DNA of 64,000 nt from Phycisphaerae bacterium (GCA_041478555.1 JBGOWI010000002.1:14622-78621), one strand, 5' to 3'; numbered from the stretch's first letter, positions 34,731 to 61,155 are shown. Numbers and translations: made by a program. The notes: generated by a model not told the origin, from the sequence alone.

Positions 34731-34777
34731 TTGACGTGCTTAAACAAAACTGGTACTATCCAGTAAACGTTTACTTG
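34731..34777 (+). promoter_or_regulatory. Promoter plus LacI-type operator, copy A
   Basis: TTGACG-17 nt-TACTAT, then the palindrome AGTAAACGTTTACT (34762-34775). Confidence 0.65.
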
Positions 34778-35016
34778 TTCTTTAATCATTTAGAACGTGT
34801 AATTATCGGGTGTTGACAAGTCCCCCATAGGGAGGAGGACGAAATCAATCTCCCAAAGAGTGTAAAAGATATGCTCCGAATGCAGTCAGAGTTTGGAGGT
34901 GTGTCTTGTAAAATTTATTTATAGTGTTTGGTATTCGAATGTTAAACTTTTAAAGTGTCGTATTTGTAACCCGAAATGAAGAAGTGTTCCTTAATTTTTT
35001 TAAGGAGGAGTAGATT
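34778..35016 (+). promoter_or_regulatory. Conserved ~240-nt 5' leader, copy A (candidate cis-regulatory RNA)
   Basis: Near-identical to 38205-38439; the core is shared with 36003-36125. It contains a CTCCGAA-11 nt-TTTGGAG hairpin, C-rich/G-rich alternative pairing segments and the SD-covering hairpin TCCTTAA-ttttt-TTAAGGA (34988-35006). Confidence 0.5.
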
Positions 35017-35760
35017 ATGAAGAAACTAATTGTTTGTTGTTTTATGTTGGTTGTGTTAAGCATGCCAGCATATGCGGATTTCACTGTGACGACAATTGCC
35101 GACCTGTCTGCATGGCCGGATTCGCCGCAGGTTAAATGCACAGTGAATCCTGGCACTGACACCACACCCGCCAACGGCCAACCCTATTCGCCAGAGCAGA
35201 ACTGGGGTGGTGGCGCTCTGCAGCAGCTTGGTCAGGTTTTTATGGTTCCCAGCTCGTACATCGGAACTCCAACATTGGACAAGGTTGCCGTTAAACTCAG
35301 CGGTACTGCTGGCACCTTGAGCGTCAAGTTGTATGACCTTTGGCCGGGAGACTTCAATGATAATTTCCACGGATGGGGCAATGGCAACCAGGGGACCTTG
35401 AGTCCTGTTAACCTTACGACCAACGCGACTCTCTTGATTAACGACACGTGGGCTTATCCAGGCAGTGCCACCGCGAAGGTGTATCTGTTGGATTTCACTG
35501 GCAGTCAAGAGGTAGCACTTGCGTATGCTGAAAAGTATATGTTCGTACTGGATCATGATAATACTTTTCAGGTGTCGTGGTACCGCAATGGCCTCTATAG
35601 CTACACCGATGGTGATGTGTATAGAGACACCGGCGCGGGTACTACTATGCAGTATGTCAATGGTGCTGGCCGCGAGGCCGGTATGGCTGTCTATATTCCC
35701 GAGCCGGCGACTATCGCTCTGTTAGGTCTTGGACTGGCTTTGCTCAGGAAGCGCAGCTAA
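35017..35760 (+). CDS. Secreted PEP-CTERM-anchored protein (unassigned beta-rich ectodomain)
   Basis: Signal MKKLIVCCFMLVVLSMPAYA and C terminus IPEPATIALLGLGLALLRKRS. A strong RBS taaggaggag is present. Confidence 0.9.
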   Translation: MKKLIVCCFMLVVLSMPAYADFTVTTIADLSAWPDSPQVKCTVNPGTDTTPANGQPYSPEQNWGGGALQQLGQVFMVPSSYIGTPTLDKVAVKLSGTAGTLSVKLYDLWPGDFNDNFHGWGNGNQGTLSPVNLTTNATLLINDTWAYPGSATAKVYLLDFTGSQEVALAYAEKYMFVLDHDNTFQVSWYRNGLYSYTDGDVYRDTGAGTTMQYVNGAGREAGMAVYIPEPATIALLGLGLALLRKRS

Positions 35761-35797
35761 TTTGTAACTGACTATTTATTTAGTTAAGTTAATAAAG

Positions 35798-35847
35798 CGC
35801 CAACGTAGCCTGCACTGAAATGTGCAGGAGACGGAGGCGTTTTTTTT
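35798..35847 (+). terminator. Rho-independent terminator
   Basis: CCTGCAC-tgaaat-GTGCAGG lies within a longer GC stem, followed by T8. Confidence 0.75.
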
Positions 35848-35955
35848 GCGCAGATTTGCCAAAATTTCAGGGTACTTATATCTTCTATCTTTCTGATTGT
35901 GCTTTTTGACGGACCAAAAAACGGAAAAAGAACAAAAGTAAAGAACAAAAAAACC

Positions 35956-36002
35956 TTGACAAGCCCAAACGAGGATGATAATATCAAGTAAACGTTTACT
36001 TG
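35956..36002 (+). promoter_or_regulatory. Promoter plus LacI-type operator, copy B
   Basis: TTGACA-17 nt-TAATAT, then the perfect 18-bp palindrome CAAGTAAACGTTTACTTG (35985-36002). Confidence 0.7.
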
Positions 36003-36208
36003 TTCTTTAGTTATTAGAATGTGCAATTATCGGGTGTTGACAAGTCCCCCCATAAGGGAGGAGGACGAAATTAATTTCCCAAAGAGTGTAACGACATGCT
36101 CCGAATGCAGGCAGAGTTTGGATGTGTGTATCGGGTTTGTATAGAAATGTTTGAAAAAAACATTAAGGAAATAACAGGTAAAAATTATTATAATTAGGAG
36201 AGGGTGCT
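36003..36208 (+). promoter_or_regulatory. Conserved 5' leader, copy B (shared core, different 3' part)
   Basis: The core 36003-36125 matches copies A and C. The 3' part carries an AATGTTT-gaaaaa-AAACATT hairpin that is also found at 63785-63803. Confidence 0.45.
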
Positions 36209-37975
36209 ATGAAATATAAAATTGAATTATTAATTGTGGCTTCGGTGTTTTTTTGCCTGTTACTGGCGCAGGCTGCCCCGGCCGGCAACACGATGAAAAC
36301 TCTCTATATAGATGGAGTGAAGGTCAATGAGACTAATGACAACACCAGTGGTCTTACTTGGCCTGAGCCGCCGAAGGACCGTATAACGATTGGAGCTGAG
36401 AACGACCGCTGGTACCTCTATAACGAATATATTGGAAAAATTGATGATTTCGCGGTTTACGCAGGTGTTCTGAGCGCTACCCGCATAAAGGCGCATTACG
36501 ATGCTAACGCGGACTATACTGCTTATAAAAATGCAGTGCAGGCGGATGCACCGTTACTATGGCTGAGGTTTGATGATGCCAGCGTGGCTAACGAAGCTGC
36601 TGCTGAAAATTCAGGCAGCATAGGGATAGACGGCAATTACGTTCAAACAGGCGGCAGCCCTTTTACTCAGGTACCCGGTTTCAATGCCGACAGTAATGCT
36701 TTAAACTTCCCTGATACTGTTGCTGATGCTGCCGGCCACTGTGTGGACATGTGGGACGGCAACGGGGACTTCGGCGAGGACCTCGATGGTGATGTAACAG
36801 TCGAGCTATGGGTCAACTTTACCGACATTGGTAACCCATTGGAGCCTGAAAACGACTGGCCGAGATTTTACCAGCACGGAGGCGGTTATGGTCTTATGGT
36901 TAGCGGCCCCAACGAATTAGGTATTCAAGGCGGCGATGCTACAAATTATATAGGTTTTCCAGATGAAAATGACATTAATGACGGTCAGTGGCACCACATT
37001 GTCGTTACCTATGACTCAACTTACGGGGCGCCAAATCTACCGCCTGCCGCCACGTATGTCGAGGAGGTGAACAAGGATAATCCCGTCCTGTGGCTGCGGT
37101 TTGAGGATACTCAACCGAAAGACTACTCTGTCGCCGACGGCAACCATTGGGTTGGTTATGGTACTGCGTTGAGCATTGTAGATAAAGTTGGCGGAATCGG
37201 AAAGTCCGCTTACTTAAATGGTCCAGATGATGGAGCCGTCTATTGTGCTGCAGCGACGAATAACCCGAACGCACCTCCCTTAGTTAGCGAGAGCTATGAA
37301 GTTTTTGATAACAATTATGCCTTTGCCCCCAACGACATAACTTTTGAGATGTGGTACAAGACCCTTCCGACCGGCCAGCCGCAGCCGGGAGACTACGGTA
37401 TATTCTTCCAGCAGTTAGGGAGTGATGAGCCAAGGGCTCCGGGTGTGAGTAATTCCGGCGGCACAATACGTGTTTTCTGCGGCAGTGACACTTGGTATAG
37501 CGGCGTGAGCTCATATTTCGACCAGAAGTGGCATCAATTAGTCGTTACTTATGATGAAGAATACGAAGGCGACCCTTGTTCAATGCACGTACAATTGTAT
37601 TTGGATGGTATTAAAAAGGGCGATGCGAATTTCACCGGCACTGGAGCAAAACTTGGGCCTGAATTGTCTCACGTTATGGTCGGCGCTGAAAGGGACATTG
37701 GGTATACCTGGAATCCATTTCGCGGGTATGTCGATGAGTTTGCTATCTACGCGGGCATCCTGGACCCAAACCGTGTCCTGACTCATTACTCGGCCTGGCA
37801 GCCCCACAATTGTGCGGAGATGTGGGATAGAGGGTTTGGATTGGCTGGCGACTTAAACCACGACTGCAAGGTGAACTTTGCTGATTTTGCCGAGCTTGCG
37901 TTAGACTGGGCAAGCTGCAACGAGCCAAATGCTCCAGGGCAGCCGCCTATCCCGGGTTGCACCCCAAACTGGTAA
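36209..37975 (+). CDS. Secreted multi-LamG (concanavalin-A-like lectin) protein with a C-terminal Cys-containing dockerin-like tail
   Basis: A signal peptide is present. IDDFAVYAGVLSATRIKAHY and VDEFAIYAGILDPNRVLTHY are LamG ends. The tail reads GDLNHDCKVNFADFAELALDWASCNEPNAPGQPPIPGCTPNW. Confidence 0.85.
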   Translation: MKYKIELLIVASVFFCLLLAQAAPAGNTMKTLYIDGVKVNETNDNTSGLTWPEPPKDRITIGAENDRWYLYNEYIGKIDDFAVYAGVLSATRIKAHYDANADYTAYKNAVQADAPLLWLRFDDASVANEAAAENSGSIGIDGNYVQTGGSPFTQVPGFNADSNALNFPDTVADAAGHCVDMWDGNGDFGEDLDGDVTVELWVNFTDIGNPLEPENDWPRFYQHGGGYGLMVSGPNELGIQGGDATNYIGFPDENDINDGQWHHIVVTYDSTYGAPNLPPAATYVEEVNKDNPVLWLRFEDTQPKDYSVADGNHWVGYGTALSIVDKVGGIGKSAYLNGPDDGAVYCAAATNNPNAPPLVSESYEVFDNNYAFAPNDITFEMWYKTLPTGQPQPGDYGIFFQQLGSDEPRAPGVSNSGGTIRVFCGSDTWYSGVSSYFDQKWHQLVVTYDEEYEGDPCSMHVQLYLDGIKKGDANFTGTGAKLGPELSHVMVGAERDIGYTWNPFRGYVDEFAIYAGILDPNRVLTHYSAWQPHNCAEMWDRGFGLAGDLNHDCKVNFADFAELALDWASCNEPNAPGQPPIPGCTPNW

Positions 37976-37999
37976 TAAAAGCTTAATCGTTAATAAAAC

Positions 38000-38041
38000 G
38001 TCAACGTAGCCTCCTTGGGAGGAGACCGAGGCGTTTTTTTT
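38000..38041 (+). terminator. Rho-independent terminator
   Basis: A CCTCC-ttg-GGAGG core stem within a longer pairing, followed by T8. Confidence 0.6.
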
Positions 38042-38157
38042 GCGCAGATATGGCCAAAATTTCAGAGTGCTTATGTCTTCTATCTTCCTGATTGTCTGAT
38101 TGTGCTTTTTGACGGACCAAAAAACGGAAAAAGAACAAAAGAAAGAACAAAAAAACC

Positions 38158-38204
38158 TTGACAAGCCCAAACGAGAATGATACTATTAAGTAAACGTTTA
38201 CTTG
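38158..38204 (+). promoter_or_regulatory. Promoter plus LacI-type operator, copy C
   Basis: TTGACA-17 nt-TACTAT, then AAGTAAACGTTTACTT (38188-38203). Confidence 0.7.
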
Positions 38205-38439
38205 TTCTTTAGTCATTAGGATGTGTCGTTATCGGGTGTTGACAAGTCCCCCATAGGGAGGAGGACGAAATCAATTTCCCAAAGAGTGTAAAAGATATGC
38301 TCCGAATGCAGTCAGAGTTTGGAAGTGTGTCTTGTAAAATTTATTTGTAGTGTTTGGTATTCGAATGTTAAACTTTTAAAGTGTCGTATTTGTAACCCGA
38401 AAGAAGAAGTTTCCTTAATTTTTTTAAGGAGGAGCAGAA
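38205..38439 (+). promoter_or_regulatory. Conserved ~240-nt 5' leader, copy C
   Basis: Near-identical to copy A, including the SD-covering hairpin at 38412-38430. Confidence 0.5.
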
Positions 38440-39192
38440 ATGAGAAAATTATTTGTTTTGTTAGTTGTAGCAGCTTTGAGCATGTCGGCCTATGCAGATA
38501 AGGTTATAGGCACCTGGGAGGTTGGAGAGGTTAACGGCGGTGGATGGAGTGATTGGTCCAGCCAAGCCCGCATTGGTCCGTTCCCTCAAACTATAAATGG
38601 CAACACGTATAACCAAAGCACAATTGGTGTTTCTAATGGGAACAACTCCCTGTCGGTGGCCGCAAAATCAGGTTGGCAGCAGTGCTTGACTATTCGTAAC
38701 TATCAGAGCACATTAGGTTTTTACATGTCGGATTTCCTCAATAACAACAAATTCCAGATTGACGTTACCTATGATAGCGGTAGCTGGCCCTCAAATACGA
38801 GTTATGCTCAGGTGTACCAGTTAGCTATGCAGACCTCAGGCTATGGAATGCATGATGTAGGTGGAACAGCTGCCCCAACCGGCGCCAATGGCGTAGTGTT
38901 TACTGATACGCTCAACCCGGGTTATCCGGGAGGTTTACCCCTTGTGAATCAGGGTACGCCGGGAACCGTCCTATCGGGAACATGGACGTGGGATTACTCC
39001 GCAATATTACCCGGAGGGTCCTATACCGGTAACAAAGTTTCGGCTTCCGATTCGTATGTGAATATTATGTTCGCATTGAATTCCAATGCGGCCGGGACTT
39101 ACTACTTCGACAATGCCCGGCTTACTCCCGAGCCGACGACAATCGCTCTGCTGGGTCTTGGATTGGCTCTGCTCAGGAAGAAAAGAAGCTAA
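38440..39192 (+). CDS. Secreted PEP-CTERM-anchored protein (unassigned beta-rich ectodomain)
   Basis: Signal MRKLFVLLVVAALSMSAYA and C terminus LTPEPTTIALLGLGLALLRKKRS. Confidence 0.9.
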   Translation: MRKLFVLLVVAALSMSAYADKVIGTWEVGEVNGGGWSDWSSQARIGPFPQTINGNTYNQSTIGVSNGNNSLSVAAKSGWQQCLTIRNYQSTLGFYMSDFLNNNKFQIDVTYDSGSWPSNTSYAQVYQLAMQTSGYGMHDVGGTAAPTGANGVVFTDTLNPGYPGGLPLVNQGTPGTVLSGTWTWDYSAILPGGSYTGNKVSASDSYVNIMFALNSNAAGTYYFDNARLTPEPTTIALLGLGLALLRKKRS

Positions 39193-39228
39193 GAAGCTGA
39201 TTCACAACTAAGTATTATTAGCAATTAA

Positions 39229-39279
39229 GCGCCACCTGTTCCTACAGTAATCATTGTGGGAAACAGGGGCGCTTTTTTT
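39229..39279 (+). terminator. Rho-independent terminator
   Basis: GCGCCACCTGTTCC-loop-GGAAACAGGGGCGC followed by T7. Confidence 0.8.
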
Positions 39280-39423
39280 ATAACTTTCAAAAAATTATCA
39301 CATCGTTTCTCCTAAGAAATTCTGAAAGGTTAAAATAACGTTTGACAAGATTCGGCAAACGATATAAATAGGAAAACCTTGTTGGGAACTGTTCAACCTG
39401 TTTATAAAAAGGATTAAAGGCTT

Positions 39424-40584: not shown

Positions 40585-40611
40585 CATCAATTTTTTAAAA
40601 GGAAGGCAGGA

Positions 40612-41484
40612 ATGTACCTGACAGGTTTTGCTGATGAAGCGGCTGCGGATATTGACGGCCAGATTAGAGCGACGAAAGAACTCGGCTGGAAAAACATAGA
40701 AAGCAGGAATGTAAACGGCAAAAATATCCACGACATTTCCGACAGAGAGTTTGATATTGTCTGCGGCAAACTTGCCGATGCCGGGATAAAAATCAACTGT
40801 TTCGGCTCGACGATAGCCAACTGGGGCAAAAAAATCACAGAGCCCTTTGATTCTTCGCTTGCAGAGGCCAAAAGAGCGGTCCCGCGAATGCAGAAATCAG
40901 GCTGCAAATTAATACGCATAATGAGTTTTGCCGTTCTTGAAGACCGCGAATCGAACGACCAGATGGAGCAGGAGCGGTTTCGCCGCGTCCGCCAGTTGCA
41001 TAAAATGTTTGCCGATGCCGGCCTTACCGCCGTTCACGAAAATTGCATGAACTACGGCGGTATGGGCTGGACTTATACTCTCAAACTCATCGAAAACGTT
41101 CCGGGTCTCAAACTTGTATTCGATACCGGCAATCCGGTCTTTACAGACGACCGCACAAAGTCAAAACCTTACCCCAAGCAGTCGTCGTGGGAATTTTACA
41201 GCCATGTTAAAGAACATATAGAATATGTGCATATTAAAGACTGTGTCTGGGATTGGGCTGCCGGCAAACCTAAATTTACTTTTGCGGGCGAAGGCAATGG
41301 CGACGTAAAACGAATCGTCGAGGACCTGCTCAAAAGCGGATATGACGGCGGTATATCAATGGAACCGCATCTGGCTGTTGTATTTCACGACAAAACCGTC
41401 AAGAGCGAAGATGCGGTCAAATATGCAAATTATGTGGAATACGGCCGACGCTTTATGGCTATGCTGAAAGAACTGAAAAACTGA
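40612..41484 (+). CDS. Sugar phosphate isomerase/epimerase (xylose-isomerase-like TIM barrel)
   Basis: Length and motifs (..HENC.., ..DTGN.., ..VHIKD.., ..SMEPH..) fit the AP_endonuc_2 family. Confidence 0.8.
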   Translation: MYLTGFADEAAADIDGQIRATKELGWKNIESRNVNGKNIHDISDREFDIVCGKLADAGIKINCFGSTIANWGKKITEPFDSSLAEAKRAVPRMQKSGCKLIRIMSFAVLEDRESNDQMEQERFRRVRQLHKMFADAGLTAVHENCMNYGGMGWTYTLKLIENVPGLKLVFDTGNPVFTDDRTKSKPYPKQSSWEFYSHVKEHIEYVHIKDCVWDWAAGKPKFTFAGEGNGDVKRIVEDLLKSGYDGGISMEPHLAVVFHDKTVKSEDAVKYANYVEYGRRFMAMLKELKN

Positions 41485-43331: not shown

Positions 43332-44312
43332 TTAGTGTTGGCGTTTCCCTTTGTCAAGAAACTCCTGACAGGCGATGTCCTGCCATTTCGGCTCAAGTCC
43401 GATTGCAACATTGTCGCCGTAGTATCCGGCGATAAAGCCTCCTCTGCCTTTCCACAATTTATCGAGCATTTCTCTTGCCTTGTTGCGGATGACTTTTTCA
43501 TTACGTGTCTGAAGAGTCTTTTGAATATCCACAGGGCACCAGAACGTAATCCTGCTTTGTTTCTGATATTCTGCAAGCTGGTCGATGCCGTGAAGGTCGG
43601 GCTGGTCGAACTGGAGAACCTCAATGCCGGCCTTTATCAGCCCCGGCACAATCGCACTGATTTTGCCGCAGGAATGCATAAAGACCTTTATGCCGCATTG
43701 ATGAGCGATTCCGCAGAGTTTAACAAATCTTGGGGAAAATTCCTCGTGCCACAGATTAGGGCTGATAAACAACTGGCTCTGGGTTCCCCAGTCTTCGGGA
43801 AACATTACACAGTCTGCTCCTGCTTTGGCATGGTTGCGAATCATATACTCCAGGAGCACATCAATTTTGTCATGTAAAATTCTTATCTTCTCTCTTTCCA
43901 GCATAATAGCCATCAGGTAATTTTCCAGTTTGAAAATCTTGTTTGCTATATTAAAGGTAAAGCCCGGCATTCCGCCTATCAGCCATTTATCCTTATTTTT
44001 GGCTCTTGCATCGACAACGGTTTGGTAATCCTCAAATCTGGAATAATCCGGCAGCTCATAGCCGGCTATCTGGGATACGTCGGACAAAACTCCCTTTACC
44101 ACTTCGCCTTTTGAAGTGGCATCCAGTCTTTGCCATATATTGCCGTACTCATCGGTTCTTTCCCATTTGCCGGGAGCGATTTGGACCCAGTCAGTAGCGC
44201 CAGTCTTTACCTTATCGTTAACCCAGATGAAATCCGAATCACCGAACGAGCGTGCTACTCGCGGGGGATTGCGGAAACTCAAGGTTCTTTCAACGATTTC
44301 TTTCGATGTCAT
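43332..44312 (-). CDS. Uroporphyrinogen-decarboxylase (URO-D/MtaA-like) family protein
   Basis: 326 aa; ..FPEDWGTQ.. and ..HSCGKISAIVPGLIKAGIEVLQFDQP.. are typical of URO-D-like TIM barrels. Confidence 0.65.
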   Translation of the reverse strand: MTSKEIVERTLSFRNPPRVARSFGDSDFIWVNDKVKTGATDWVQIAPGKWERTDEYGNIWQRLDATSKGEVVKGVLSDVSQIAGYELPDYSRFEDYQTVVDARAKNKDKWLIGGMPGFTFNIANKIFKLENYLMAIMLEREKIRILHDKIDVLLEYMIRNHAKAGADCVMFPEDWGTQSQLFISPNLWHEEFSPRFVKLCGIAHQCGIKVFMHSCGKISAIVPGLIKAGIEVLQFDQPDLHGIDQLAEYQKQSRITFWCPVDIQKTLQTRNEKVIRNKAREMLDKLWKGRGGFIAGYYGDNVAIGLEPKWQDIACQEFLDKGKRQH

Positions 44313-48101: not shown

Positions 48102-48161
48102 TTTGTCCTTTTCTACCGGTAGCAATTGCCGTTCAAATCTGCTTCAAGGGTCAATCCTGAA

Positions 48162-49445: not shown

Positions 49446-49455
49446 CTGTCCTTTT

Positions 49456-52400: not shown

Positions 52401-52638
52401 TCAGGCTGGTTGGATCATAGACAGCGGCTCCGCCAAAACCTTCAAGCTGCTGATAAACGGTGTTATAATTTACTGTGCCTGTCGCAGCCATCCCTGCCTG
52501 GACAAAGAACAGGCATAAGGTCAGAATTGCTGCCCCCACTCTTGCTTCGCAAGAAGCAGTGGGGGTGATTGTTTTTCGGGGGAAATAACGGCCTCCAGCG
52601 GTTTTAGCCGCTGGGTCAGATATTCGCTTCTTCATCAT
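49456..52638 (-). CDS. Multidomain secreted GH30 enzyme: GH30, InlB-B-repeat-like, Fn3, unassigned ~210-aa module, Fn3 and Cys-containing dockerin-like tail
   Basis: LEGFGGAAV, ISIQNEPD and FMTEYG indicate GH30. YHFVNWTG..VVANFE is B-repeat-like. Fn3 blocks are present. The tail reads DLNGDCYVDNQDLDVISYYWL..NFLDFGDFAVQWMQCNDPNDQACVHNW. Confidence 0.85.
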   Translation of the reverse strand: MMKKRISDPAAKTAGGRYFPRKTITPTASCEARVGAAILTLCLFFVQAGMAATGTVNYNTVYQQLEGFGGAAVYDPTSLTSHSQREAIYDLLFKDLGLDVLRIRNCVGYDDSAVTATKTIVAAARQTTRNPALKLELVPWSPPGAYKSTGSSTGGTLAKSGGLYVYAAYADWWADSLETWATNPNGLVPDYISIQNEPDIETSYDSCKFLPNETTSFAGYDQAFEAVYNEIYSRLGSSMPKMLAPETMGITGGSVGGAGPYIDALVNRGQINNVYGFSNHLYSDGTGNYDIPDDKIPAMQTFAANYGDYYNKPLFMTEYGANGTPTFAHAVLLAQHIYNCLVYEGVTSYYHWSLFRSSSTGGFIHIDSSSAYSIRDLYYFFKHYSYFTDPNWYLIGASTDSSNLRMTAFKNPGNDELTVVILNKSTSSENITLTLNGCSPDDSEVYRSSQSEHWLYIGAFTQPLSLPAQSITTISFSVTIGPQQTLVCSSTNGGSVTTPGEGSFQYAQDSNATIVATADLHYHFVNWTGTAADAGKVADPNAASTTVLMDANYTVVANFEANPPDTTPPTPNPLVWATVPTATGPSTITMTATTATDANSPPVQYYFECTNHGEANSTWQTSPTYIASGLTPSTQYSFRVKARDSYLTPNETGWSSTQSATTTAPSTDVNIIGSWATGTTHTKVSGTNRALVFIAHSEDDDDPNINLSSVTYGGQSMTKVIEKVVSSGSPLTRAYVVAFILNEPNIAAASGNTFTLSWNQTPDTNVFSSVFLQNVNQTTLTGASASNGTTSGNTITTSSALATSDGDMVILAATCGQAGSYTLNNGFTEANDQSFSSSTGVTGYKKTPTGSSETPSATFSGTMNRQVIIGFVVKAGAMNLPPAAPTNLTATAGNGMVSLDWNDNNEVDLAGYNVYRSMTSGSGYSKLNGSTLVSDSNYIDNSATNGIPYFYVVTAVDDANNESGYSNEASATPDYQDCSQVRAAGHQLDSDLNGDCYVDNQDLDVISYYWLNPECGDSNNCDGADFEPTDGIVNFLDFGDFAVQWMQCNDPNDQACVHNW

Positions 52639-52821
52639 TCCTCACTCCTAAAAAAGATGAGCCAGCGAGTTTAGCTACAAAGTTTAACTACAAAATAGTA
52701 TACTTGGTTTGTCCCCTAAAATCAAGGTTTTTTGCCATTTTGCGGAGTTTTTTGCGGGCAGAATAGGCAGAAATCAGCTAAAAAAGAAGATTATGCCTTC
52801 TTTATTTCACTTCATTTGATT

Positions 52822-55800
52822 TTACCAGTTATGTCCGCAGTTCGGGTCATTCGGGTCGTTGCACTGTGTCCACTGCACGGCAAAATCGCCGAAGTCGAGG
52901 AAGTTGACGATGCCGTCCACCGGCTCAAAATCCGCACCATCACAGTTGTTGGAATCGCCGCATTCAGGATTCAGCCAGTAATAGGATATAACATCGAGGT
53001 CCTGGTTGTCAACATAACAATCGCCGTTGAGGTCTGACAGGAGGCCGTGGCCAGTAGCCCGCACCTGCGAGCAGTCCTGGTAATCGGGCGTAGCTGAAGC
53101 TTCGTTCGAATAGCCGGATTCGTTGTTGGCGTCATCAACCGCTGTTACGACGTAATAATAGGGTATGCCGTTGGTGGCGCTGTTGTCGATATAATTCGAG
53201 TCGCTCACAAGAGTAGAGCCGTTCAACTTGCTGTAGCCGCTGCCCGAAGTTGTTGAGCGATATACATTGTAACCTGCCAGGTCAACTTCATTGTTATCAT
53301 CCCAGTCAAGCGTAACTATTCCATTGCCTGCCGTTGCTGCCAGTCCTGTCGGCGCCGCTGGAGGCATATCTATTGCTGCAGCCTTGACTACGAAGCCGAT
53401 AATTACCTGACGATTCACATTTGTGTGTCTTACGTTTGGCTCTTCGACAACCCCTATTGCGGATTTGTATCCAGTTGTGCCGGTGGACGAAGCCATATCT
53501 TGTTCAATAGCTTCGGTGAATCCGTTATTTACAGTATAGTCACCCGTATTGCCGCACGTAGCAGCATCGATAACCATATCCCCGTCGTTTGTGGCGAGAG
53601 CGGCGGTCGTGATTGGATTTGGAGTGCTGCTTGCCGTGCCGTTACTGGCGGATGCTCCGATAGAAGTAGTCTGGTCAACGTTGGAAAGGAATACACTTGC
53701 GTATCCAACCTCCGTCGGCGTTGTGTTCCAAGTGGGAGCAAACGTGCCGCTGGTTGCAGCAGCAATGTTTGGCTCTTTGAGGATATATGCCACAACGTAT
53801 GCATAGGTGGTTGGTGTTCCACTGCTGACTGCTCTTTCGATGACCTTGGTCATTGATTGTCCGCCGTAGGTTACAGAGACCAGATTCATATCGCCGGCAC
53901 GCTCGCCATGTGCAATAAAAATCAAAGCACGGTTAATTCCGTTTGCTTCTTTGGCGTGGCTGGTTCCGGAGACCCATGAGCCGATGATGTTCACGTCTGT
54001 CGGGGGTGCTTGGGTGGTTGCGGACTGTGTGCTCGACCAGCCCGTCTGGTTTGGGGCAGGGGCGCTATCGCGAGCCTTGACCCTGAACATATATAAAGTT
54101 GAAGGAGTAAGACCTTGTGCTACGTATGTCGGGCTTGTTTGCCAGGTGCTGTTGGCCTCGCCGTGATTGGTGCATTCGAAATAATACTGCACAGGCGGAC
54201 TCGTAGCGTCGGTAGCGGTTGTTGCGGTCATTGTAATTGTGCTTGCGCCGGTAGCTGTCGGAACCGTTGCCCAGACAAGCGGATTTGGCGTCGGCGGCGT
54301 GGTATCCGGTGCGTTAGTGGTTGCCGATTCTGTGCTCGACCAGCCCGTCTGGTTTTGGGCAGGGGCGCTGTCGCGTGCCTTGACCCTGAATGTATATAAT
54401 GTTGAAGGATTGAGGCCGCTGGCTGCATAAGTCGGGCTTGTTTGCCAGGTACTATTGGCCTCACCGTGATTGGTGCATTCGAAGTAGTACCGCACGGGTG
54501 TACTAATGTCCGTTGCGGTCGTTGCGGTCATTGTGATTGTGTATGGCCCCGTTGCGGTTGGCGTCGAAGCCCAGGTCATCGGGTTCGGTGTTGGGGCATT
54601 GGTGTCAGGCGGACCGCTATAGAAACCAGTTTCGAGCTCAAATGCCTCGGTTCCCGTTCCCGGTTCCAGCTCTATAGTGTGTATTTCTGTATTGGGTTCG
54701 CCGGCCTTGCTGAGCGTTATCTCGTAAGTGCCGTGAATTCCCCTGAAATTCACCTCGCCTGACGTATTGGTGTAATTGGCATCTTTTGTTGTCCATTCGT
54801 TCATCAGGGCTTCGTATTTTTGGCCGGCTGCGTTTAAAACGCCGCTGGTGCTTACAAGCCCCCAGGCGCTGTTGGCCCGCCAGGTATAGCCTACCATAAA
54901 GCCCCACATTATTATGCCCTCAACATTTGGGTCGCTGAACATTATTCGGTAGTAGTTCTCCACGTCAGTTGCTCGCGCAGAATCACTTGTGGTATCGGAA
55001 TCGAACTCGGTGGCCCAGATGGGCAGACCCAGTTGATTGCCCAGAGGTTTGAGGACGTTGTTCCAGTAACTTTCGGGGTCAAAGGGCGAATTAATGTGGC
55101 CCTGAATGCCGATGGCGTGGATTGGCGCTCCTTTGCCGCGCAGATTATTGACGAGACTTATATAATTGGTAGCGGTGTAACTGCCGAATGAATTGCCGGA
55201 GTATTCATTGACAAACAGTTTGCAGTTGGGGTCTAACTGGTTGGCCCTTTGGTGCATCCAGACTCTTGAATTTACATCTGTTGAACCCGGCCCACCTACC
55301 TCGAGGCGGTCGAAGAATGGGTCGGTCAGTTGTTCATTATCGACATCCCAGTGGACAAATTTATTCTGAAAATGAGGCACCACGCTATTCAGCCGGTTCT
55401 GACAGGCAGTGTACAAAGCGGAAATCTGCGGCCAGGGTGCATAGGTCAGATTCGTTACCCACGATGGGAGACTGCTGCTCTGTTCCCAGAAGATACAATG
55501 GCCTCGCATCGTGATTCCGTTGCTGTTACACCAGTTGTAGATATTATCCGCATCCGTATAGGAAACACTGCCTTGTGTCTTCTCGTTGGAGGTCCACTTT
55601 GTCTCATTTTCACACGCCGCCCATTCGAAATGGTTCTTGAAAAAGTTGGCATAAGTGGTATTGCTGTTGACTCTATAGTTGATGCACGAGCCGAATGCGA
55701 AGCGATGCTTAACCTGTTTTATTTGCACATTAACGTCGGCGACAGGCTCCCCATTAGAGCCGAGGACCGTAATTTCGGCATTCCTCTTGCGCATCGACTC

Positions 55801-55899
55801 AATTCTTGCGTTGGCGTCGCTTTTCCAGTCGGCGTAAGAGGATGATGTTAATAAAACAACCGTTAAAAACAAACGGGCATAAGAATATTTAACAGACAT
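52822..55899 (-). CDS. Multidomain secreted GH10 enzyme: GH10, beta-sandwich, 2x Fn3, unassigned ~210-aa module, Fn3 and Cys-containing dockerin-like tail
   Basis: FAFGSCIN, WAACENETKW, HWDVDNEQ and WATEFDS indicate GH10. Two tandem ..PTPNP..YYFECTNHGEANSTWQTSPTY..FRVKARD Fn3 units are present. The tail is near-identical to that of 49456-52638. Confidence 0.85.
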   Translation of the reverse strand: MSVKYSYARLFLTVVLLTSSSYADWKSDANARIESMRKRNAEITVLGSNGEPVADVNVQIKQVKHRFAFGSCINYRVNSNTTYANFFKNHFEWAACENETKWTSNEKTQGSVSYTDADNIYNWCNSNGITMRGHCIFWEQSSSLPSWVTNLTYAPWPQISALYTACQNRLNSVVPHFQNKFVHWDVDNEQLTDPFFDRLEVGGPGSTDVNSRVWMHQRANQLDPNCKLFVNEYSGNSFGSYTATNYISLVNNLRGKGAPIHAIGIQGHINSPFDPESYWNNVLKPLGNQLGLPIWATEFDSDTTSDSARATDVENYYRIMFSDPNVEGIIMWGFMVGYTWRANSAWGLVSTSGVLNAAGQKYEALMNEWTTKDANYTNTSGEVNFRGIHGTYEITLSKAGEPNTEIHTIELEPGTGTEAFELETGFYSGPPDTNAPTPNPMTWASTPTATGPYTITMTATTATDISTPVRYYFECTNHGEANSTWQTSPTYAASGLNPSTLYTFRVKARDSAPAQNQTGWSSTESATTNAPDTTPPTPNPLVWATVPTATGASTITMTATTATDATSPPVQYYFECTNHGEANSTWQTSPTYVAQGLTPSTLYMFRVKARDSAPAPNQTGWSSTQSATTQAPPTDVNIIGSWVSGTSHAKEANGINRALIFIAHGERAGDMNLVSVTYGGQSMTKVIERAVSSGTPTTYAYVVAYILKEPNIAAATSGTFAPTWNTTPTEVGYASVFLSNVDQTTSIGASASNGTASSTPNPITTAALATNDGDMVIDAATCGNTGDYTVNNGFTEAIEQDMASSTGTTGYKSAIGVVEEPNVRHTNVNRQVIIGFVVKAAAIDMPPAAPTGLAATAGNGIVTLDWDDNNEVDLAGYNVYRSTTSGSGYSKLNGSTLVSDSNYIDNSATNGIPYYYVVTAVDDANNESGYSNEASATPDYQDCSQVRATGHGLLSDLNGDCYVDNQDLDVISYYWLNPECGDSNNCDGADFEPVDGIVNFLDFGDFAVQWTQCNDPNDPNCGHNW

Positions 55900-56545
55900 T
55901 TTCTTCTTCCTTAATTATGTTTTGGCTAAAATGCACGTTATAAAATATGGTTTTAGAATGGCTGAGTTGGTGATTCATTGATGTATCAGCCTTGCCTGCG
56001 GCATTAGGCTCGATTGGCTTGGGCGGGGCGGCAGGCGGGCCGAATACGTTTACGTCATCGACGTAGAAATTTACGTCTGCGGCAGGACCTTCAAAGTAAA
56101 CATCGAGAGTTGTCAACGTGCCGACGGCATTCAGGGTGAAACTTCCTGAGAGCTGGACCCAATTACTGTCGTTGGCGGTTCCCTTGGCTATGTTAATATA
56201 TCTGGTGCCTTTATCATCCTTTTGCTCAATGGATACAACGACATCAGCGCCGGCTGCGTTTTCGAGTCTGACCCAGCCGGAAATTTGATAAGTGTTTCCA
56301 TCCTGTACTCTGCCCAGGATAGACTGTTTGATTCCCTGCCAGTTTTGGGTTCTGCCGGATGCCTTTCCACTGTAAGTGCCGCTGTGCTTTTGTTCAGTTG
56401 TTGTTGTGAACGTGCAACCGCGAGCAGCCCAGCCATTGCTATCCTCGAACCCTGGATTTGCAAGTATGTTGGTATCGCCGTAACAGGGCGACAATGCCAA
56501 ACAGCCGGCCAAAAACAAGACCATACCAAAATACTTAATGGACAT
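55889..56545 (-). pseudogene. CBM-only remnant of a CBM-GH30 gene (truncated at ~55980)
   Basis: MSIKYFGMVLFLAGCLALSPCYG..NILANPGFEDSNGW.. is collinear with the N termini of 56562-58724 and 46275-48101 up to ..PKPIEPNAAGKADTS. It then reads into the leader of the GH10 gene and stops. Confidence 0.6.
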
Positions 56546-56561
56546 TTTTGTTCCCCTTAAA

Positions 56562-58724
56562 TTAATTTTCCCAGTTAGATATACAGCCTGGTCCACCTGG
56601 GTCATTGCAAGTCAGCCATTGGGCTGCTAAATCGGCAAAGTCGAGCAGGTTCACTATATTATCAGAATCAGTATGAATGTCAGGCGAATGTTCCGGCGGA
56701 AATACCGTTATCGGGGATGTTTCAAGCCAATGCTCTGTCATAACCAGCAGGTCCTTGAAGTTGATGTAGCAATCGCTGTTCAAGTCCGCGAGTAATCTGT
56801 AATGAAAGTCTTGTACTTCCTGACAGTTCGTAGGAATCAGCGTTCCCATTAGTGCAACGGTTGTGATTGAGTTTTTAGGCAGGGTTAAAGGCGTGTTCGC
56901 GTCGAATACTCCGACAAAGGCACACTTTTGTGTCAGGCTCGAATTGGTTCGATATACATTACCGTCTTGGACTTCGAAATTTCCGAGAGAATTAAAGTCC
57001 AGCGCAATGTTGGTGTCGGTGGAGGTATTTATTATTACAATTGACATTTGATTGTTATCAGGGCTGATGTAGGCTGAGATTCTCAATGCGGGAGAATTTG
57101 TTGATGCCTCGATGCGCTGCCAATTAGGGTCTGTAAAAGCGGCATAGTGCTTAAAGGCATAATAGACTGGATTAATGGTATAGCTTGATGCCGTGATACT
57201 CACCAGACCCGTTCCAGATGTTCCCCAGAACAAGTCCCAATGCATATATGCTGCCACCTCCTCAACAGTCAGAGAGTTGTGCATCAACTTCGCCAGATTT
57301 ATTGCGTCAGTGAAATTACTCTCGTTATGGGAATATTCTGTCTGCAGCAATGGTTTATAGCCATATTGTGCTGCGAAGCTTGCCATCGTGGAAATGTAAC
57401 CGTCAGGGTTGTCGCCATCTCCGCCGCCATTATAAAGATGATGAGCGTAACCATAAACTGGTGACCTGTCAAAAAGGGCATCTATATAACTGGTCAATTG
57501 ATTAAAGCCTGCTGTTTCCGGTGCGAGCAGCTTGGGAGGATTTGGCAAAGCGGCTACTTTGGTGGAGAGGGCCTGGAAGGCTGAATTGTAACCCGCATAG
57601 CTTGAGTTCTCATTTGGGTCAAATCTGCAGGAGTCCCACGTGGCTAAATAGTCAGGTTCGTTCTGCATATTGATATATTCGGCGCGTATGCCGTGATTGT
57701 TAAAATCGATTATGCTGTTATACCACCATTGTGCAAACCTTTGGTAAACGTATCCGGAAGAGCCGTTATTGGGGTCGTTAAAATCTTTTGCAAGCGTTCC
57801 GCCGACAGTACTGTTATTGCTCTTGAGAGAGTACGGCGGAGAATTCGGCGGAGACCACGAAGAAATCATAATCTTTATGGGATGTCCTAACGAAGATGCT
57901 GCACGGGCGACGATTGTGGCTGAGTTATCTATGTAGCTGCTGCCGCCTGACTGGCCATAAGCGTTTCGCAACCTGTAAATATCAAGGCCTAATTGGCCGA
58001 AGAGAACTTTATAGATGTTCGGGTCGGATTGGCCAAGGCTGACAAGCGTTCCTTCATACCAGGCGCCGGCGGCTCCGAAGCCTTCGAGGACCTGATGACG
58101 TATTGATGTATTGATTTGACCTGTGGCATTAGGGTCGGTGGGAGTAGGGGGTGGGCCAAATACATTCGCGTCATCGACAAAGAAGTTTACGTCTGCGGCA
58201 GGACCCTCAAAGTAAACATCAAGAGTTCCTAATATGCCGTTGACGTCTAATGTGAAACTCCCTGAGAGCTGGATCCAACTACTTTTGTTGGCGGTCTTAC
58301 TATTTATAGTATAGTATCTGGTGCCGCCATTGCTATCAGTTTGCTCAACGGATACCTTGACAATATTGCTGTCCGAGTTTTCGAGTTTGACCCAGCCGGA
58401 TATCGCGTAGGTGTTTCCATCCTGTACTTTGCCTAAAAGTGACTGTTTTATTCCCTGCCATGTAGCAGTTCTCTTGGATGCCTTTCCACTGTAAGTGCCG
58501 CTGTGCTTTTGTGCAGTTGTGTACGTGAACGTGCAACCGCGAGCAGCCCAGCCATTGCTATCCTCGAACCCGGGATTTGTAAGTATGTTGATATCGCCGT
58601 AACAGGGCGACAATGTCAAAACACCGGCCAAAAACAAGACCATACCAAAATACTTAATGGACGTTTTTGTTCTCCTTAAATTAATTTTCCCAGTTAGATA
58701 TACAGCCTGGTCCACCCGGGTCAT
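56562..58724 (-). CDS. Secreted CBM4/9/22-like plus GH30 enzyme with a Cys-containing dockerin-like tail
   Basis: NILTNPGFEDSNGW (CBM); LEGFGAAGAW, INMQNEPD and LQTEYS (GH30); tail ADLNSDCYINFKDLLVMTEHWL..NLLDFADLAAQWLTCNDPGGPGCISNWEN. The start is uncertain (ATG 58724 lies inside the upstream gene; ATG 58643 is the alternative). Confidence 0.82.
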   Translation of the reverse strand: MTRVDQAVYLTGKINLRRTKTSIKYFGMVLFLAGVLTLSPCYGDINILTNPGFEDSNGWAARGCTFTYTTAQKHSGTYSGKASKRTATWQGIKQSLLGKVQDGNTYAISGWVKLENSDSNIVKVSVEQTDSNGGTRYYTINSKTANKSSWIQLSGSFTLDVNGILGTLDVYFEGPAADVNFFVDDANVFGPPPTPTDPNATGQINTSIRHQVLEGFGAAGAWYEGTLVSLGQSDPNIYKVLFGQLGLDIYRLRNAYGQSGGSSYIDNSATIVARAASSLGHPIKIMISSWSPPNSPPYSLKSNNSTVGGTLAKDFNDPNNGSSGYVYQRFAQWWYNSIIDFNNHGIRAEYINMQNEPDYLATWDSCRFDPNENSSYAGYNSAFQALSTKVAALPNPPKLLAPETAGFNQLTSYIDALFDRSPVYGYAHHLYNGGGDGDNPDGYISTMASFAAQYGYKPLLQTEYSHNESNFTDAINLAKLMHNSLTVEEVAAYMHWDLFWGTSGTGLVSITASSYTINPVYYAFKHYAAFTDPNWQRIEASTNSPALRISAYISPDNNQMSIVIINTSTDTNIALDFNSLGNFEVQDGNVYRTNSSLTQKCAFVGVFDANTPLTLPKNSITTVALMGTLIPTNCQEVQDFHYRLLADLNSDCYINFKDLLVMTEHWLETSPITVFPPEHSPDIHTDSDNIVNLLDFADLAAQWLTCNDPGGPGCISNWEN

Positions 58725-60798
58725 TGCAAGTCAGCCATTGAGCCGCTAAATCGGCAAAGTCGAGCAGGTTTACTATGTTACCGGAATCAGTATGGATGTC
58801 AGGCGAATGTTCCGGCGGAAATACCGTTATCGGGGATGTTTCAAGCCAATGCTCTGTCATAACCAGCAGGTCCTTGAAGTTGACATAGCAGTCGCCGGTT
58901 AAGTCCGCAGGTAATCTGTAACCAAAGTTTTGTACTTCCTGACAGCTTGTGGGAAGCAGCGTTCCAGTTAGTGCAATGGTTGCGATTGACCTTGCAGGCA
59001 AAGACAAAGGCATAGTGTCCCCAAACTTTCCTATGAGTGCACAGTTTTCCATTATGCTTGTTCGATAAACATTGCCATCTGCGACTTCAAAATTACCGAG
59101 AGAATTAAAGTCGAGAAAGATGTCGGCGCCGGTAGAGGTGTTTATTATTACAATGGACATTTGATTGTTATCAGGGCTGATGTAGGCTGAGATTCGCAGG
59201 GCGTTCGGTTCGTTGTTCGGTTCGTCTGTTGAGGCTTCAAGACGCTGCCAATTGGGGTCCGTAAAGGCTGAATAGTGCTTGAAGGCATAATAGACCGGAT
59301 TGATGGTATAGCTTGTTGATGAAATACTTACCAGTCCTTTGGGGGCTCCCCAGAACAACTCCCAGTACAGATATGCGGAGGCGTTCTCGACAGTCAGAGA
59401 GTTGTGCATCAAAAGCGCCAGATTCATTGCGTCGGTAAAGGTAAGGGCGTTCGAGTCCCCCCTTGAGAATTCTGTCTGCAGTCGCGGCTTGTCACTATAA
59501 TTTGCCGCTAACCAGGTCATTGCGGAGATATAGCCGTCAGGGTTGTCCGCGCTACCGCCGCCGCCATAAAGATGATGGGCATAGCCGTAAACATTGGATT
59601 TGTCAGTTGTGTCTAGTGCATTTATATAATACCAGGTGTCGTATATACTCGCACCTTCCGGTGCCAGAAGTTTTGGACGATTTGGCATCGTGTTCAACTT
59701 ATTGTACAAGGCTCGAAAGGCCTGCGTGTAACCTGCGTAATCTGATGTCTCATCGTTGTAGAATACGCACGAATCCCAGGTGGCCCAAAAGTCGGGTTCA
59801 TTTTGCATATTCACGTATTCGGCATTTATGCCATGATTGGAAAAATCGGTCAGGCTGTCCCGCCACCATTGTGCAAACCTTTGGTATACGTATCCGTAAG
59901 GGACATTATTGGGGTCGTTATAATCTTTGGCAAGCGTTCCGCCGTTGTTAGTGGTGCCGTTGCTTTTTAGCGTAGCCGGCGGAGACCACGAGGAAATCAT
60001 AATCTTTATTTTCGGGTTACGAGCCTTCGCGGCTGCGACGATTTGAGCAGTGTTGTCTATATAGCCGGCGTCATATCCGTGGGTATTTCGTACCCTGTAA
60101 ATATCAAGGCCTAATTGACTGAAGAGTGTGTCATAGATGTCTGGGTGGGATCCGCCGAGGCTGACAAGCGTTCCATCACTCCAGGCGCCGGCGGCCCCGA
60201 AGCCTTCTATCTTCTGGCGGCGTATTGTTGTATCAACACTGGCATAAAGAGGAGGAGGGGACGGACCAAATACACTTACATCATCGAGGTAGAGATATAC
60301 TCCTGCGGCAGGGCCTGAGAAGTAAACGTCCAGGACAGTCAATGTGCCGGTAACACTCAGTGTGAAACTCCCTGAGAGCCGGACCCAATAAGTATTATAG
60401 CCGGTGTCGCTGTTTACGTCAATTAATCTGTTGCCCAGACCATCAGTTTGCTCGATGGTTACCTTGATATTATCACTGGCCACGCTTGAAAGTTTGACCC
60501 ACCCGGATATCTGGTAGGTACCTCCGGGCTGCATTTTGCCTAAAAGGGACTGTTTGATTCCCTGTGACGTCGCGGTTCTGCCGACTGCTAATCCGCTGCG
60601 AGACCCGCTGTGCTTGTCTGACGTTGTTGATGTAAATCCACAACCGCCGCGGGCGGCCCAGCCGGTTGTACCGCTTTCAAACCCCGGATTTGTCAGAATA
60701 TTTACATTTGCGGCTTTAGTGCCGGAAATCGCAGCAAAAAACACTATCAGTGTTGTCAAAAGGTTAGTCCATCCAAAGTTATGGATGTCTTTTTCCAT
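58681..60798 (-). CDS. Secreted CBM4/9/22-like plus GH30 enzyme with a Cys-containing dockerin-like tail (first gene of the array)
   Basis: The track ORF starts at TTG 60837; ATG 60798 (MEKDIHNFGWTNLLTTLIVFFAAISGTKA) has GGAGG 11 nt upstream. Domain motifs are as in 56562-58724. Confidence 0.82.
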   Translation of the reverse strand: MEKDIHNFGWTNLLTTLIVFFAAISGTKAANVNILTNPGFESGTTGWAARGGCGFTSTTSDKHSGSRSGLAVGRTATSQGIKQSLLGKMQPGGTYQISGWVKLSSVASDNIKVTIEQTDGLGNRLIDVNSDTGYNTYWVRLSGSFTLSVTGTLTVLDVYFSGPAAGVYLYLDDVSVFGPSPPPLYASVDTTIRRQKIEGFGAAGAWSDGTLVSLGGSHPDIYDTLFSQLGLDIYRVRNTHGYDAGYIDNTAQIVAAAKARNPKIKIMISSWSPPATLKSNGTTNNGGTLAKDYNDPNNVPYGYVYQRFAQWWRDSLTDFSNHGINAEYVNMQNEPDFWATWDSCVFYNDETSDYAGYTQAFRALYNKLNTMPNRPKLLAPEGASIYDTWYYINALDTTDKSNVYGYAHHLYGGGGSADNPDGYISAMTWLAANYSDKPRLQTEFSRGDSNALTFTDAMNLALLMHNSLTVENASAYLYWELFWGAPKGLVSISSTSYTINPVYYAFKHYSAFTDPNWQRLEASTDEPNNEPNALRISAYISPDNNQMSIVIINTSTGADIFLDFNSLGNFEVADGNVYRTSIMENCALIGKFGDTMPLSLPARSIATIALTGTLLPTSCQEVQNFGYRLPADLTGDCYVNFKDLLVMTEHWLETSPITVFPPEHSPDIHTDSGNIVNLLDFADLAAQWLTCNDPGGPGCISNWEN

Positions 60799-60906
60799 TT
60801 TCAACCCATCCTCCGTAGATTGCCAAATTGTTGGCAAGACCCTCCGCCGGTCTTTTTGAAAACACCACCGCAGGTCGACTAATTTGACCCTTGTTCTTTT
60901 TCAAAC

Positions 60907-60961
60907 AGTAAACGATTACCGAACTTCTTATATCATAGCCTATCCTATACTGGTACGTCAA
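60907..60961 (-). promoter_or_regulatory. Promoter of the GH30/GH10 array with a near-consensus LacI-type operator (copy E)
   Basis: The minus strand reads TTGACG-18 nt-TATGAT, then GGTAATCGTTTACT. On the plus strand this is AGTAAACGATTACC at 60907-60920, a 12/14 match to the palindrome. Confidence 0.5.
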
Positions 60962-61105
60962 GAACATTTGAAGGAATATGGGATTGTTTTATTTTTTTGC
61001 GTTATTTTTCATGCTAAAAAAGACACATATTATCTGCATTTATCGACTTCTGGTGGGTCTGAAAACAGGATTGTCCAAAAAAAGAAAAAATGTATATAAA
61101 AAACC

Positions 61106-61155
61106 TTGACATTCTTCCAGGACAGTGATAATTTATACAAGTAAACGTTTACTTG
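61106..61155 (+). promoter_or_regulatory. Promoter plus LacI-type operator, copy D (autoregulatory)
   Basis: TTGACA-17 nt-TAATTT, then CAAGTAAACGTTTACTTG (61138-61155), 18-32 nt upstream of the regulator start. Confidence 0.65.

Follow-up and report, generated by a model that had tools for sequence, protein, structure and literature searches.

A predicted LacI-type operator regulon connecting xylan-cleaving enzymes with PEP-CTERM surface proteins in a Phycisphaerae bacterium

Repressors of the LacI/GalR family, exemplified by LacI, GalR, and PurR of E. coli and by CcpA of Bacillus, combine a helix-turn-helix (HTH) DNA-binding domain with an effector domain of the periplasmic-binding-protein (PBP) type, and their operators are palindromes of 14-16 bp with a central CG and a AAACGTTT core that overlap the transcription start. 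In Xanthomonas and Caulobacter, the LacI-family protein XylR acts on xylan/xylose regulons through a 14-bp palindromic box (TGGTAGCGCTAACA-like) located ahead of xylanase genes and of genes for surface uptake and binding, with xylose or xylo-oligosaccharides as inducers. Here we analyze a stretch of 64,000 nucleotides from Phycisphaerae bacterium (GCA_041478555.1 JBGOWI010000002.1:14622-78621), called the window throughout and numbered from its first letter, in which a gene for a LacI-family protein (61188-62213), an array of xylanase-type genes, two genes for PEP-CTERM proteins, and a gene for a protein with a LamG domain are each associated with a copy of one palindrome.

The regulator of the window has the same two-domain build as the LacI/GalR repressors, and its presumed operator is of the same kind, with the same overlap of the transcription start and the same predicted autoregulation; the GalR operator OE, GTGTAAACGATTCCAC, shares the GTAAACGATT variant. 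The regulator differs from the characterized members in sequence, with about 25-30% identity at best and scores below every NCBIfam equivalog cut-off, and no C-terminal tetramerization segment is evident. The host, an uncultured anaerobic member of the Phycisphaerae (order Sedimentisphaerales) with close relatives in peat (SPRUCE) samples, is also unlike the LacI/GalR model organisms. Compared to the XylR regulons, the box sequence differs, and the surface components are PEP-CTERM proteins resembling carbohydrate-binding modules (CBMs) instead of TonB-dependent transporters. The repressor-operator logic is textbook; what is new is the tie of PEP-CTERM CBM-like proteins to xylan use, the portable cassette, and an undescribed leader hairpin.

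We propose, with a probability of roughly 0.8, that these genes form a regulon governed by a pathway-specific LacI repressor through five operators placed over transcription starts. At each of five promoters, a dimer of the LacI-family protein would bind the palindrome (A)AGTAAACGTTTACT(T) of 14-16 bp and, by covering the transcription start, would block RNA polymerase in the manner of classical steric repression. The predicted units are lacI together with the gene of a 466-aa secreted protein, which would be autoregulated; a divergent array with at least seven xylanase genes of the CBM4_9/GH30-like/GH10 type (GH, glycoside hydrolase); and three monocistronic genes, encoding a 247-aa PEP-CTERM protein, a 588-aa LamG protein, and a 250-aa PEP-CTERM protein with a predicted CBM22/CBM4-like module. 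Secreted enzymes that cleave xylan would in this way be coupled to sugar-binding proteins that an exosortase would anchor at the surface. The most likely inducer, to which we give even odds, is an oligosaccharide derived from xylan that would release the repressor. The initial annotation had named xylan or galactan oligosaccharides as candidate inducers; between the two, the set of enzymes speaks for xylan as the substrate. In the three surface-protein genes, a hairpin with the loop UGCNGUCAGAG, located in leaders of 210-240 nt that carry a very strong ribosome-binding site, would most likely act after transcription has started, via mRNA stability or translation.

Operators and promoters in the window

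A sequence search of the whole 64-kb window revealed the 14-mer AGTAAACGTTTACT without mismatch at 34762, 35987, 38189, and 61140, and no perfect copy appeared in 200 shuffled windows. Extended to the 16-mer AAGTAAACGTTTACTT, the palindrome is perfect at operators O2 (35986-36001), O3 (38188-38203), and O5 (61139-61154), the last being the predicted autoregulatory site, and has a single mismatch at O1 (34761-34776, cAGTAAACGTTTACTT). When up to three mismatches are allowed, the 16-mer gives five matches in the window compared to 0.37 expected from shuffles, a count that none of 100 shuffles reaches; four are O1, O2, O3, and O5, and the fifth is an unrelated match at 8199. The array-side site O4 (AGTAAACGaTTACc, 60907-60920) agrees with the 14-mer at 12 of 14 positions and has conserved counterparts in relatives.

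Every site lies directly downstream of a promoter. Those of PEP-CTERM gene 1 (TTGACG-17-TACTAT, 34731-34759, plus strand, with TG before the second hexamer), the LamG gene (TTGACA-17-TAATAT, 35956-35984, plus), PEP-CTERM gene 2 (TTGACA-17-TACTAT, 38158-38186, plus), and the GH array (TTGACG-18-TATGAT, 60932-60961, minus) were found by promoter scan, and that of lacI (TTGACA-17-TAATTT, 61106-61134, plus, with TG two bases before the second hexamer) by direct reading, its second hexamer falling under the scan threshold. The four perfect copies begin 1-5 nt past a TTGAC-17-TAnnnT promoter (2 nt past the second hexamer for O1), and all five sites lie 1-11 nt past the second hexamer, the 11 nt being those of O4; the palindrome therefore overlaps the expected transcription start. 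An A-tract, CAAAAAA, is kept directly 5' of the first hexamer in the promoters of small surface-protein genes (in the window, for example, at 35944-35955 and 38146-38157). It looks like an UP element and would suit very strong promoters. Looping between O4 and O5 was considered and is not claimed: they are separated by 233 bp here and by 185-363 bp in relatives, with no consistent helical phase.

The regulator, a protein of 341 aa encoded on the plus strand with a probable GTG start at 61188, is a full-length family member. Its HTH domain scores 46.2 bits with PF00356 (cut-off 27, residues 14-63), its PBP-like effector domain scores 93.2 bits with PF13377 and 31.7 bits with PF00532, and it aligns over its full length with the structures of CcpA, PurR, and LacI, CcpA being the best solved-structure match (E 4e-23). 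Downstream of it, a gene on the plus strand (62361-63761) encodes the 466-aa secreted protein, which has a dockerin-like tail and no known family in Pfam or NCBIfam. The gene order is conserved in relatives, and the 466-aa gene is probably co-transcribed with lacI.

The three plus-strand sites are located within a promoter-operator-leader cassette of about 300 nt, about 95% identical between copies, ahead of unrelated coding sequences. The similarity is a mosaic. Copies 2 and 3 also agree over about 150 nt upstream of the first hexamer, and their common stretch runs from the terminator that precedes each cassette as far as the hairpin (35850-36130 versus 38050-38332). Between operator and ATG, copy 1 is 96% identical to copy 3, and the two have the leader in common (34790-34976 versus 38216-38402). 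With unrelated proteins downstream, this pattern suggests that a regulatory module was copied or converted from one promoter to another, by gene conversion or by transfer of the cassette. Descent of the two PEP-CTERM proteins from a common ancestor by duplication (paralogy) was rejected as the source of the identical leaders, as their bodies do not align and the similarity is confined to the signal peptide and the PEP-CTERM tail.

These results bear out most of what the initial annotation had read here: the four perfect operator copies, the 12/14 copy behind a minus-strand TTGACG-18-TATGAT promoter, the promoters ahead of the sites, the LacI-family gene next to the operator at 61138-61155, and, by Pfam, the gene content of two PEP-CTERM genes, one LamG gene, and a seven-gene GH array. 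Its count of five sites stands with one correction, namely that the three plus-strand copies, being one duplicated cassette, amount to one item of evidence within the window. The reading of the whole as a LacI-operator regulon is supported by the comparative genomics below; binding and repression are what we infer from it.

Conservation of the operator and its gene neighborhood

Orthologues of lacI were compared at 13 loci (57-79% identity) from Sedimentisphaerales and other Phycisphaerae metagenome-assembled genomes; loci and contigs are identified below by L numbers. At nine of the 13 loci, the same palindrome is found directly past a TTGAC promoter upstream of lacI. Taking the genome loci together with a metagenome scan for TTGAC-N(24-34)-AGTAAACGTTTACT, from which all counts are lower bounds, at least 24 distinct lacI promoters carry the invariant 14-mer with diverged spacers and flanks. 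They belong mostly to Sedimentisphaerales orthologues, with a few from another LacI subfamily.

The array-side site has counterparts as well. In L004, an identical 17-mer, AGTAAACGATTACCGAA, lies at the array-side site 185 nt upstream of the main site; L133 and L049 have a site with one mismatch 222 nt upstream, and second sites are found 270-315 nt upstream in L128, L008, L055, and L132. Another orthologue group (L005, L009, L010, L011, L014, L022, L024, L078, L131) has two perfect operators upstream of lacI, the first at the promoter and the second, at a distance of 79-94 bp, within the leader, whereas the second site of the window is located at the divergent promoter. In L147 and L150, the array and lacI sites both show a T-to-A variant, AGTAAACGATTACT, and the operator of the PEP-CTERM gene is AGTAAACGATTACT too in L150 and AGTAAGCGTTTACT in L147. 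This common variant suggests that the operators have co-evolved with the regulator.

The neighborhood of the operators is conserved along with them. In L133, L049, L004, L128, and L003, the gene facing lacI belongs to a CBM4_9/GH30-like or GH10 array with the same tails. The order of GH array, divergent lacI, 420-aa gene, and LamG gene is found in L133, L049, and L004, where the counterparts of the 466-aa gene (40% identity) and the LamG gene (41%) of the window lie past lacI; L128 and L003 are cut at the lacI end, so that only the array-lacI divergence is visible. The LamG and 466-aa genes thus sit in the lacI operon of the relatives, and in the window the LamG gene has moved 25 kb away and has its own operator. 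A homologue of the 466-aa gene in L082 likewise has its own promoter-operator.

The operator is also carried by at least 17 distinct small PEP-CTERM promoters of other genomes. Among the matches listed, the promoter-operator followed by a 220-275-nt leader is found ahead of small secreted PEP-CTERM proteins in L037/L135, L050, L068, L089, L108 (twice), and L110. Promoter, operator, and leader are present in all seven inspected members of the family of the 250-aa protein, and all seven lie among xylan-type enzymes (GH115+GH8 fusion, GH43, GH10, GH116/GH3, CBM4_9, and an ABC + URO-D-like pair). In L147-L152, a small PEP-CTERM gene is located about 5 kb from the lacI orthologue, and the PEP-CTERM, array, and lacI operators are all present. 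For the 247-aa protein, whose family counts eight proteins, L159 retains promoter, operator, and leader, and in L160/L162 a homologue and a LamG gene each have their own cassette beside a TPR/PMT_2 gene, as in the window.

The leader hairpin and competing readings

The initial annotation did not notice the conserved leader that follows the operator at the three surface-protein genes, all on the plus strand. Copy 1 (34777-35016) has its hairpin at 34871-34902 with the loop UGCAGUCAGAG and a strong ribosome-binding site, AAGGAGGAG, before the ATG. Copy 2 (36002-36208; hairpin 36096-36127) carries the loop variant UGCAGGCAGAG and diverges from the other two after about 135 nt, and copy 3 (38204-38439; hairpin 38297-38328) follows copy 1 through the ATG. 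An alignment of 17 distinct leaders shows two 5' architectures and one common hairpin, in which the stem is variable and the loop A-UGCNGUCAGAG-U invariant. With other genomes included, hairpin and loop are present in at least 20 distinct leaders. Of all cells, 93.8% are paired, a level that 2 of 500 shuffles attain and that compares with 90.8% for the shuffled data; the covariation score is 0.287 compared to 0.236 (3 of 500). Three pairs show double changes, and pairing falls to 14-58% when the partner columns are slid.

A covariance model of the hairpin matches only these leaders within 1.27 Mb of sequence. Rfam 15 has no gathering-level match in the window, the leaders giving only chance-level matches with E up to 1-5. 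Searches with blastn and nhmmer found no leader copy in the loci collected via lacI; the covariance model later found one in L109, the closest relative (1087-1145, 33.6 bits). This copy (region 940-1225) stands behind a TTGACG-17-TATTAT promoter with a degenerate operator, AAATCGACGGTTACGT, and ahead of a secreted protein whose N-terminus is LamG-like by eye, and its upstream flank resembles that of copy 1 in the window. The leader can therefore exist without an operator.

Reading the invariant AUGCNGUCAGAG as an upstream open reading frame or leader peptide was rejected. It lacks a ribosome-binding site, its UCA and GAG codons show no synonymous changes where leaders have diverged, the base that varies occupies the second position of a codon, and copy a of L160/L162 has ACACGGUCAGAG, without AUG. 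A sigma-54 or second promoter inside the leader was rejected as well, as the internal TTGACA is restricted to window-type leaders and lacks a second hexamer to go with it. We regard the hairpin as a candidate cis-acting RNA element, for which mRNA stabilization or translational control is the most plausible role. The transcript-stabilizing leaders of S-layer mRNAs are similar in that they likewise combine a long 5' leader (210-280 nt), a 5'-proximal structure, and a very strong ribosome-binding site at secreted surface-protein genes. They have no sequence relation to the leaders described here, in which the invariance of the 11-nt loop makes a specific partner more likely than generic protection.

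Several observations weigh against the proposed regulon. Three of its five sites in the window are copies of one duplicated cassette and are hence not independent. A match to the 14-mer with two mismatches, such as O4, is expected about 0.28 times per window by chance, so that O4 is weak alone and its support comes from position and conservation. No recognizable upstream site was seen at the lacI orthologues L006, L007, and L013 (64-66% identity) or at the paralogue L012. In relatives, no site accompanies the neighboring GH115/GH8 genes, which means that part of the xylan gene set lies outside the regulon. All 17 NCBIfam matches of the regulator are under their equivalog cut-offs (best lactose_RbsR, 147 bits compared to 382), and the inducer is for that reason unreadable from homology. 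The support from covariation for the hairpin is modest. Finally, among the matches listed, the 14-mer AGTAAACGTTTACT is also found past the promoters of TetR-family and second LacI-subfamily genes in metagenome contigs (L026, L030, L034, L036, L045, L065, L072, and many others, ahead of TetR or other-LacI genes, on contigs of very different G+C content). From this distribution, the sequence is evidently recruited by unrelated regulators; it does not by itself name the regulator, and the assignment rests on co-occurrence and synteny.

The last point opens the way to a reading in which another regulator, be it a paralogous LacI, a CcpA-like global catabolite regulator, or a TetR-type protein, binds the palindrome and the adjacent lacI is merely one target. 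Besides the TetR-linked and other-LacI copies, this would agree with the fit of the site to the cre pattern TGWAANCGNTNWCA except at its two outer bases, with CcpA as the best structural match of the regulator, and with chromosome OY775912.1, which holds two paralogues (L008 and L012). We nevertheless consider it unlikely. The site co-occurs with the orthologue group in the 24 or more distinct promoters described above (few from another LacI subfamily) and at the adjacent divergent array promoter, the contigs that carry the TetR-linked sites are very different in G+C and gene content, and none of the five sites in the window has a TetR gene next to it. A local, autoregulated, divergent architecture is, moreover, typical of pathway-specific LacI repressors.

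It is very improbable that functional operators are limited to the lacI and array sites and that the plus-strand copies came along passively when a strong promoter cassette was recently duplicated or gene-converted. The near-identity of the three cassettes in front of unrelated PEP-CTERM bodies, and the mosaic, with the upstream part common to copies 2 and 3 and the leader up to the ATG common to copies 1 and 3, would be expected from such events; however, at least 14 other sequence contexts keep the exact operator ahead of small PEP-CTERM genes, orthologous and non-orthologous, with diverged spacers and leaders, and the operator variant of L147/L150 is found at the array and lacI sites and, in L150, at the PEP-CTERM site too. 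We are also rather doubtful that the conserved leader mainly governs the surface-protein genes by working as an RNA switch responsive to a ligand or protein, with no more than a basal gate left to the LacI site. The invariant loop in at least 20 distinct leaders and nowhere else in 1.27 Mb, the L109 leader behind a degenerate operator, and the lack of an Rfam match are in line with a dedicated RNA element. Conversely, covariation is modest, L163, an orthologue of the 247-aa protein, keeps the operator and lacks the hairpin, and no terminator or clear alternative sequestering the ribosome-binding site is conserved across both leader types. Such a switch would in any case complement LacI control rather than exclude it. 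A LacI-operator regulon with an additional leader element is thus the reading that we retain.

Surface proteins, enzymes, and their meaning

Gene families were assigned with Pfam and NCBIfam. The three surface-protein genes, all on the plus strand, are each monocistronic with their own terminator. They encode the 247-aa secreted PEP-CTERM protein (35017-35760; terminator about 35797-35848), the 588-aa secreted Laminin_G_3 protein with a dockerin-like C-terminal tail (36209-37975; terminator 38013-38040), and the 250-aa PEP-CTERM protein (38440-39192; terminator about 39229-39280). The PEP-CTERM domains of the two small proteins score 19.5 and 21.4 bits with TIGR02595 (cut-off 16) and 22.7 and 21.9 bits with PF07589 (cut-off 20.7). 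Their tails read ..PEPATIALLGLGLALLRKRS and ..PEPTTIALLGLGLALLRKKRS, and both proteins combine the motif, a hydrophobic helix, and a basic cluster with a signal peptide. No exosortase was seen among the scanned open reading frames (ORFs) of the window, to which this search was confined.

A profile search gave more than 370 members of the family of the 250-aa protein, all in Sedimentisphaerales-type contigs and with no other name than Sedimentisphaerales PEP-CTERM protein. For the 250-aa protein, AlphaFold (48 sequences; predicted local distance difference test score, pLDDT, of 91.7) gives a model with a beta-sandwich flanked by the signal peptide and the PEP-CTERM helix. Compared to the PDB with Foldseek, the model has its top match in CBM22, a xylan-binding module, followed by CBM27, CBM4-2, CBM11, and CBM30, with E values of about 6e-4 and target-normalized TM-scores of about 0.5; Pfam gives no CBM match for this protein. 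A cohesin identity was rejected, as the Foldseek top 50 consists of CBMs and lectins without a single cohesin. The best reading of the model is an exosortase-anchored carbohydrate-binding protein with a CBM22/CBM4-like beta-jelly-roll, which would fit co-regulation with xylanases.

The array on the minus strand (46275-60837) comprises seven CBM4_9/GH30-like (XynC-like) and GH10 genes, several with dockerin-like tails. Its GH30-like domains match the NCBIfam model of the glucuronoarabinoxylan endo-xylanase XynC under the cut-off of that model. Beyond the array lie an ABC transporter gene with fused membrane and ATPase domains (44338-46161) and, beyond it, a URO-D-like gene (43332-44312). The same pair is found directly beyond a CBM4_9/GH array in an unrelated contig (L154/L155, 7468-10289), and the transcription unit of the array may continue into it, as in L154. 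By eye, tails of the form DLNxDCxVDxxD...W..CNDP end several array proteins, the LamG protein, and the 466-aa protein. The description of these enzymes as dockerin-tailed in the initial annotation rests on this visible resemblance and on sub-threshold matches: the Dockerin_1 scores of the tails are 16.6, 16.8, and 12.2 bits compared to a cut-off of 22.9, and one tail has no match.

The array is built of several diverged duplications (families D1-D6, D8, D10, D13-D18). Within it, a 238-aa ORF (55889-56605) contains only a CBM4_9 module, overlaps the start of the next GH10 gene, and resembles a truncated CBM4_9/GH30-like copy; the 471-aa GH10 ORF (48162-49577) has an N-terminal extension overlapping the preceding gene, and its true start is probably further in. 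Elsewhere in the window, a separate galactan/galactoside cluster on the plus strand (6143-16663) encodes GH2, GH35, lacto-N-biose phosphorylase, GH42, and GH53 and is preceded by genes for a 1017-aa LamG protein and a prepilin-like protein. An extra match to the operator, at 8199-8214, is a perfect 14-bp palindrome (TGTAAACGTTTACA, 14-mer at 8200) inside the 3' part of its GH2 ORF (6143-8728, 861 aa), about 525 nt before the GH35 gene. It was rejected as a site of the regulon, since it lies within an ORF of the separate galactan cluster with no promoter association, and it may be due to chance or be an internal site for another LacI-type regulator of that cluster. Further on, the minus strand (18885-22454) encodes a 1189-aa secretin whose gene contains an internal array of diverged repeats, each about 222-246 nt long (families D11 and D12, 20.7-22.3 kb).

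Two other kinds of surface system offer a comparison. The surface glycan-binding proteins (SusE/F-type) of Bacteroidota polysaccharide utilization loci (PULs) are small, non-catalytic, surface-anchored proteins with beta-sandwich CBMs and are co-regulated with the glycoside hydrolases for one polysaccharide, as is predicted for the small proteins of the window. They differ in being anchored by lipidation instead of the presumed PEP-CTERM/exosortase route and in their control by hybrid two-component or extracytoplasmic-function (ECF)-type regulators instead of LacI, and the window has no SusC/D pair. As in cellulosomes, enzymes of the window end in one or two DLNxDxxVDxxD...W segments resembling the calcium-binding repeats of dockerins; in contrast to cellulosomes, Dockerin_1 is sub-threshold, the small protein looks CBM-like, no cohesin is among the Foldseek top 50, and no scaffoldin was identified.

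PEP-CTERM proteins are abundant in environmental bacteria and, to our knowledge, almost none has a known role; our literature search found no paper connecting them with dockerin-like enzymes or with Sedimentisphaerales. Speculatively, the cassette could be a portable two-layer control module of Sedimentisphaerales, in which the LacI operator gates transcription and the leader hairpin, either as a cis-regulatory RNA of a new kind or as a place where a protein or small RNA docks, tunes how stable the surface-protein mRNAs are or how well they are translated. The PEP-CTERM proteins might then be exosortase-anchored xylan-binding modules and, together with the dockerin-like-tailed enzymes, might constitute an unrecognized planctomycete cell-surface apparatus for polysaccharide capture, parallel to the PULs of Bacteroidota and to clostridial cellulosomes. 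We hold this wider picture to be possible and no better than tentative. Taken together, common operators, gene neighborhood, and a CBM-like predicted fold tie a PEP-CTERM family of more than 370 members to xylan degradation, with cell-surface xylan capture as its proposed role. The leader hairpin is a candidate new RNA element that is directly testable, and the regulon gives a defined operator-regulator pair for the uncultured peat and sediment Phycisphaerae that degrade plant polymers.

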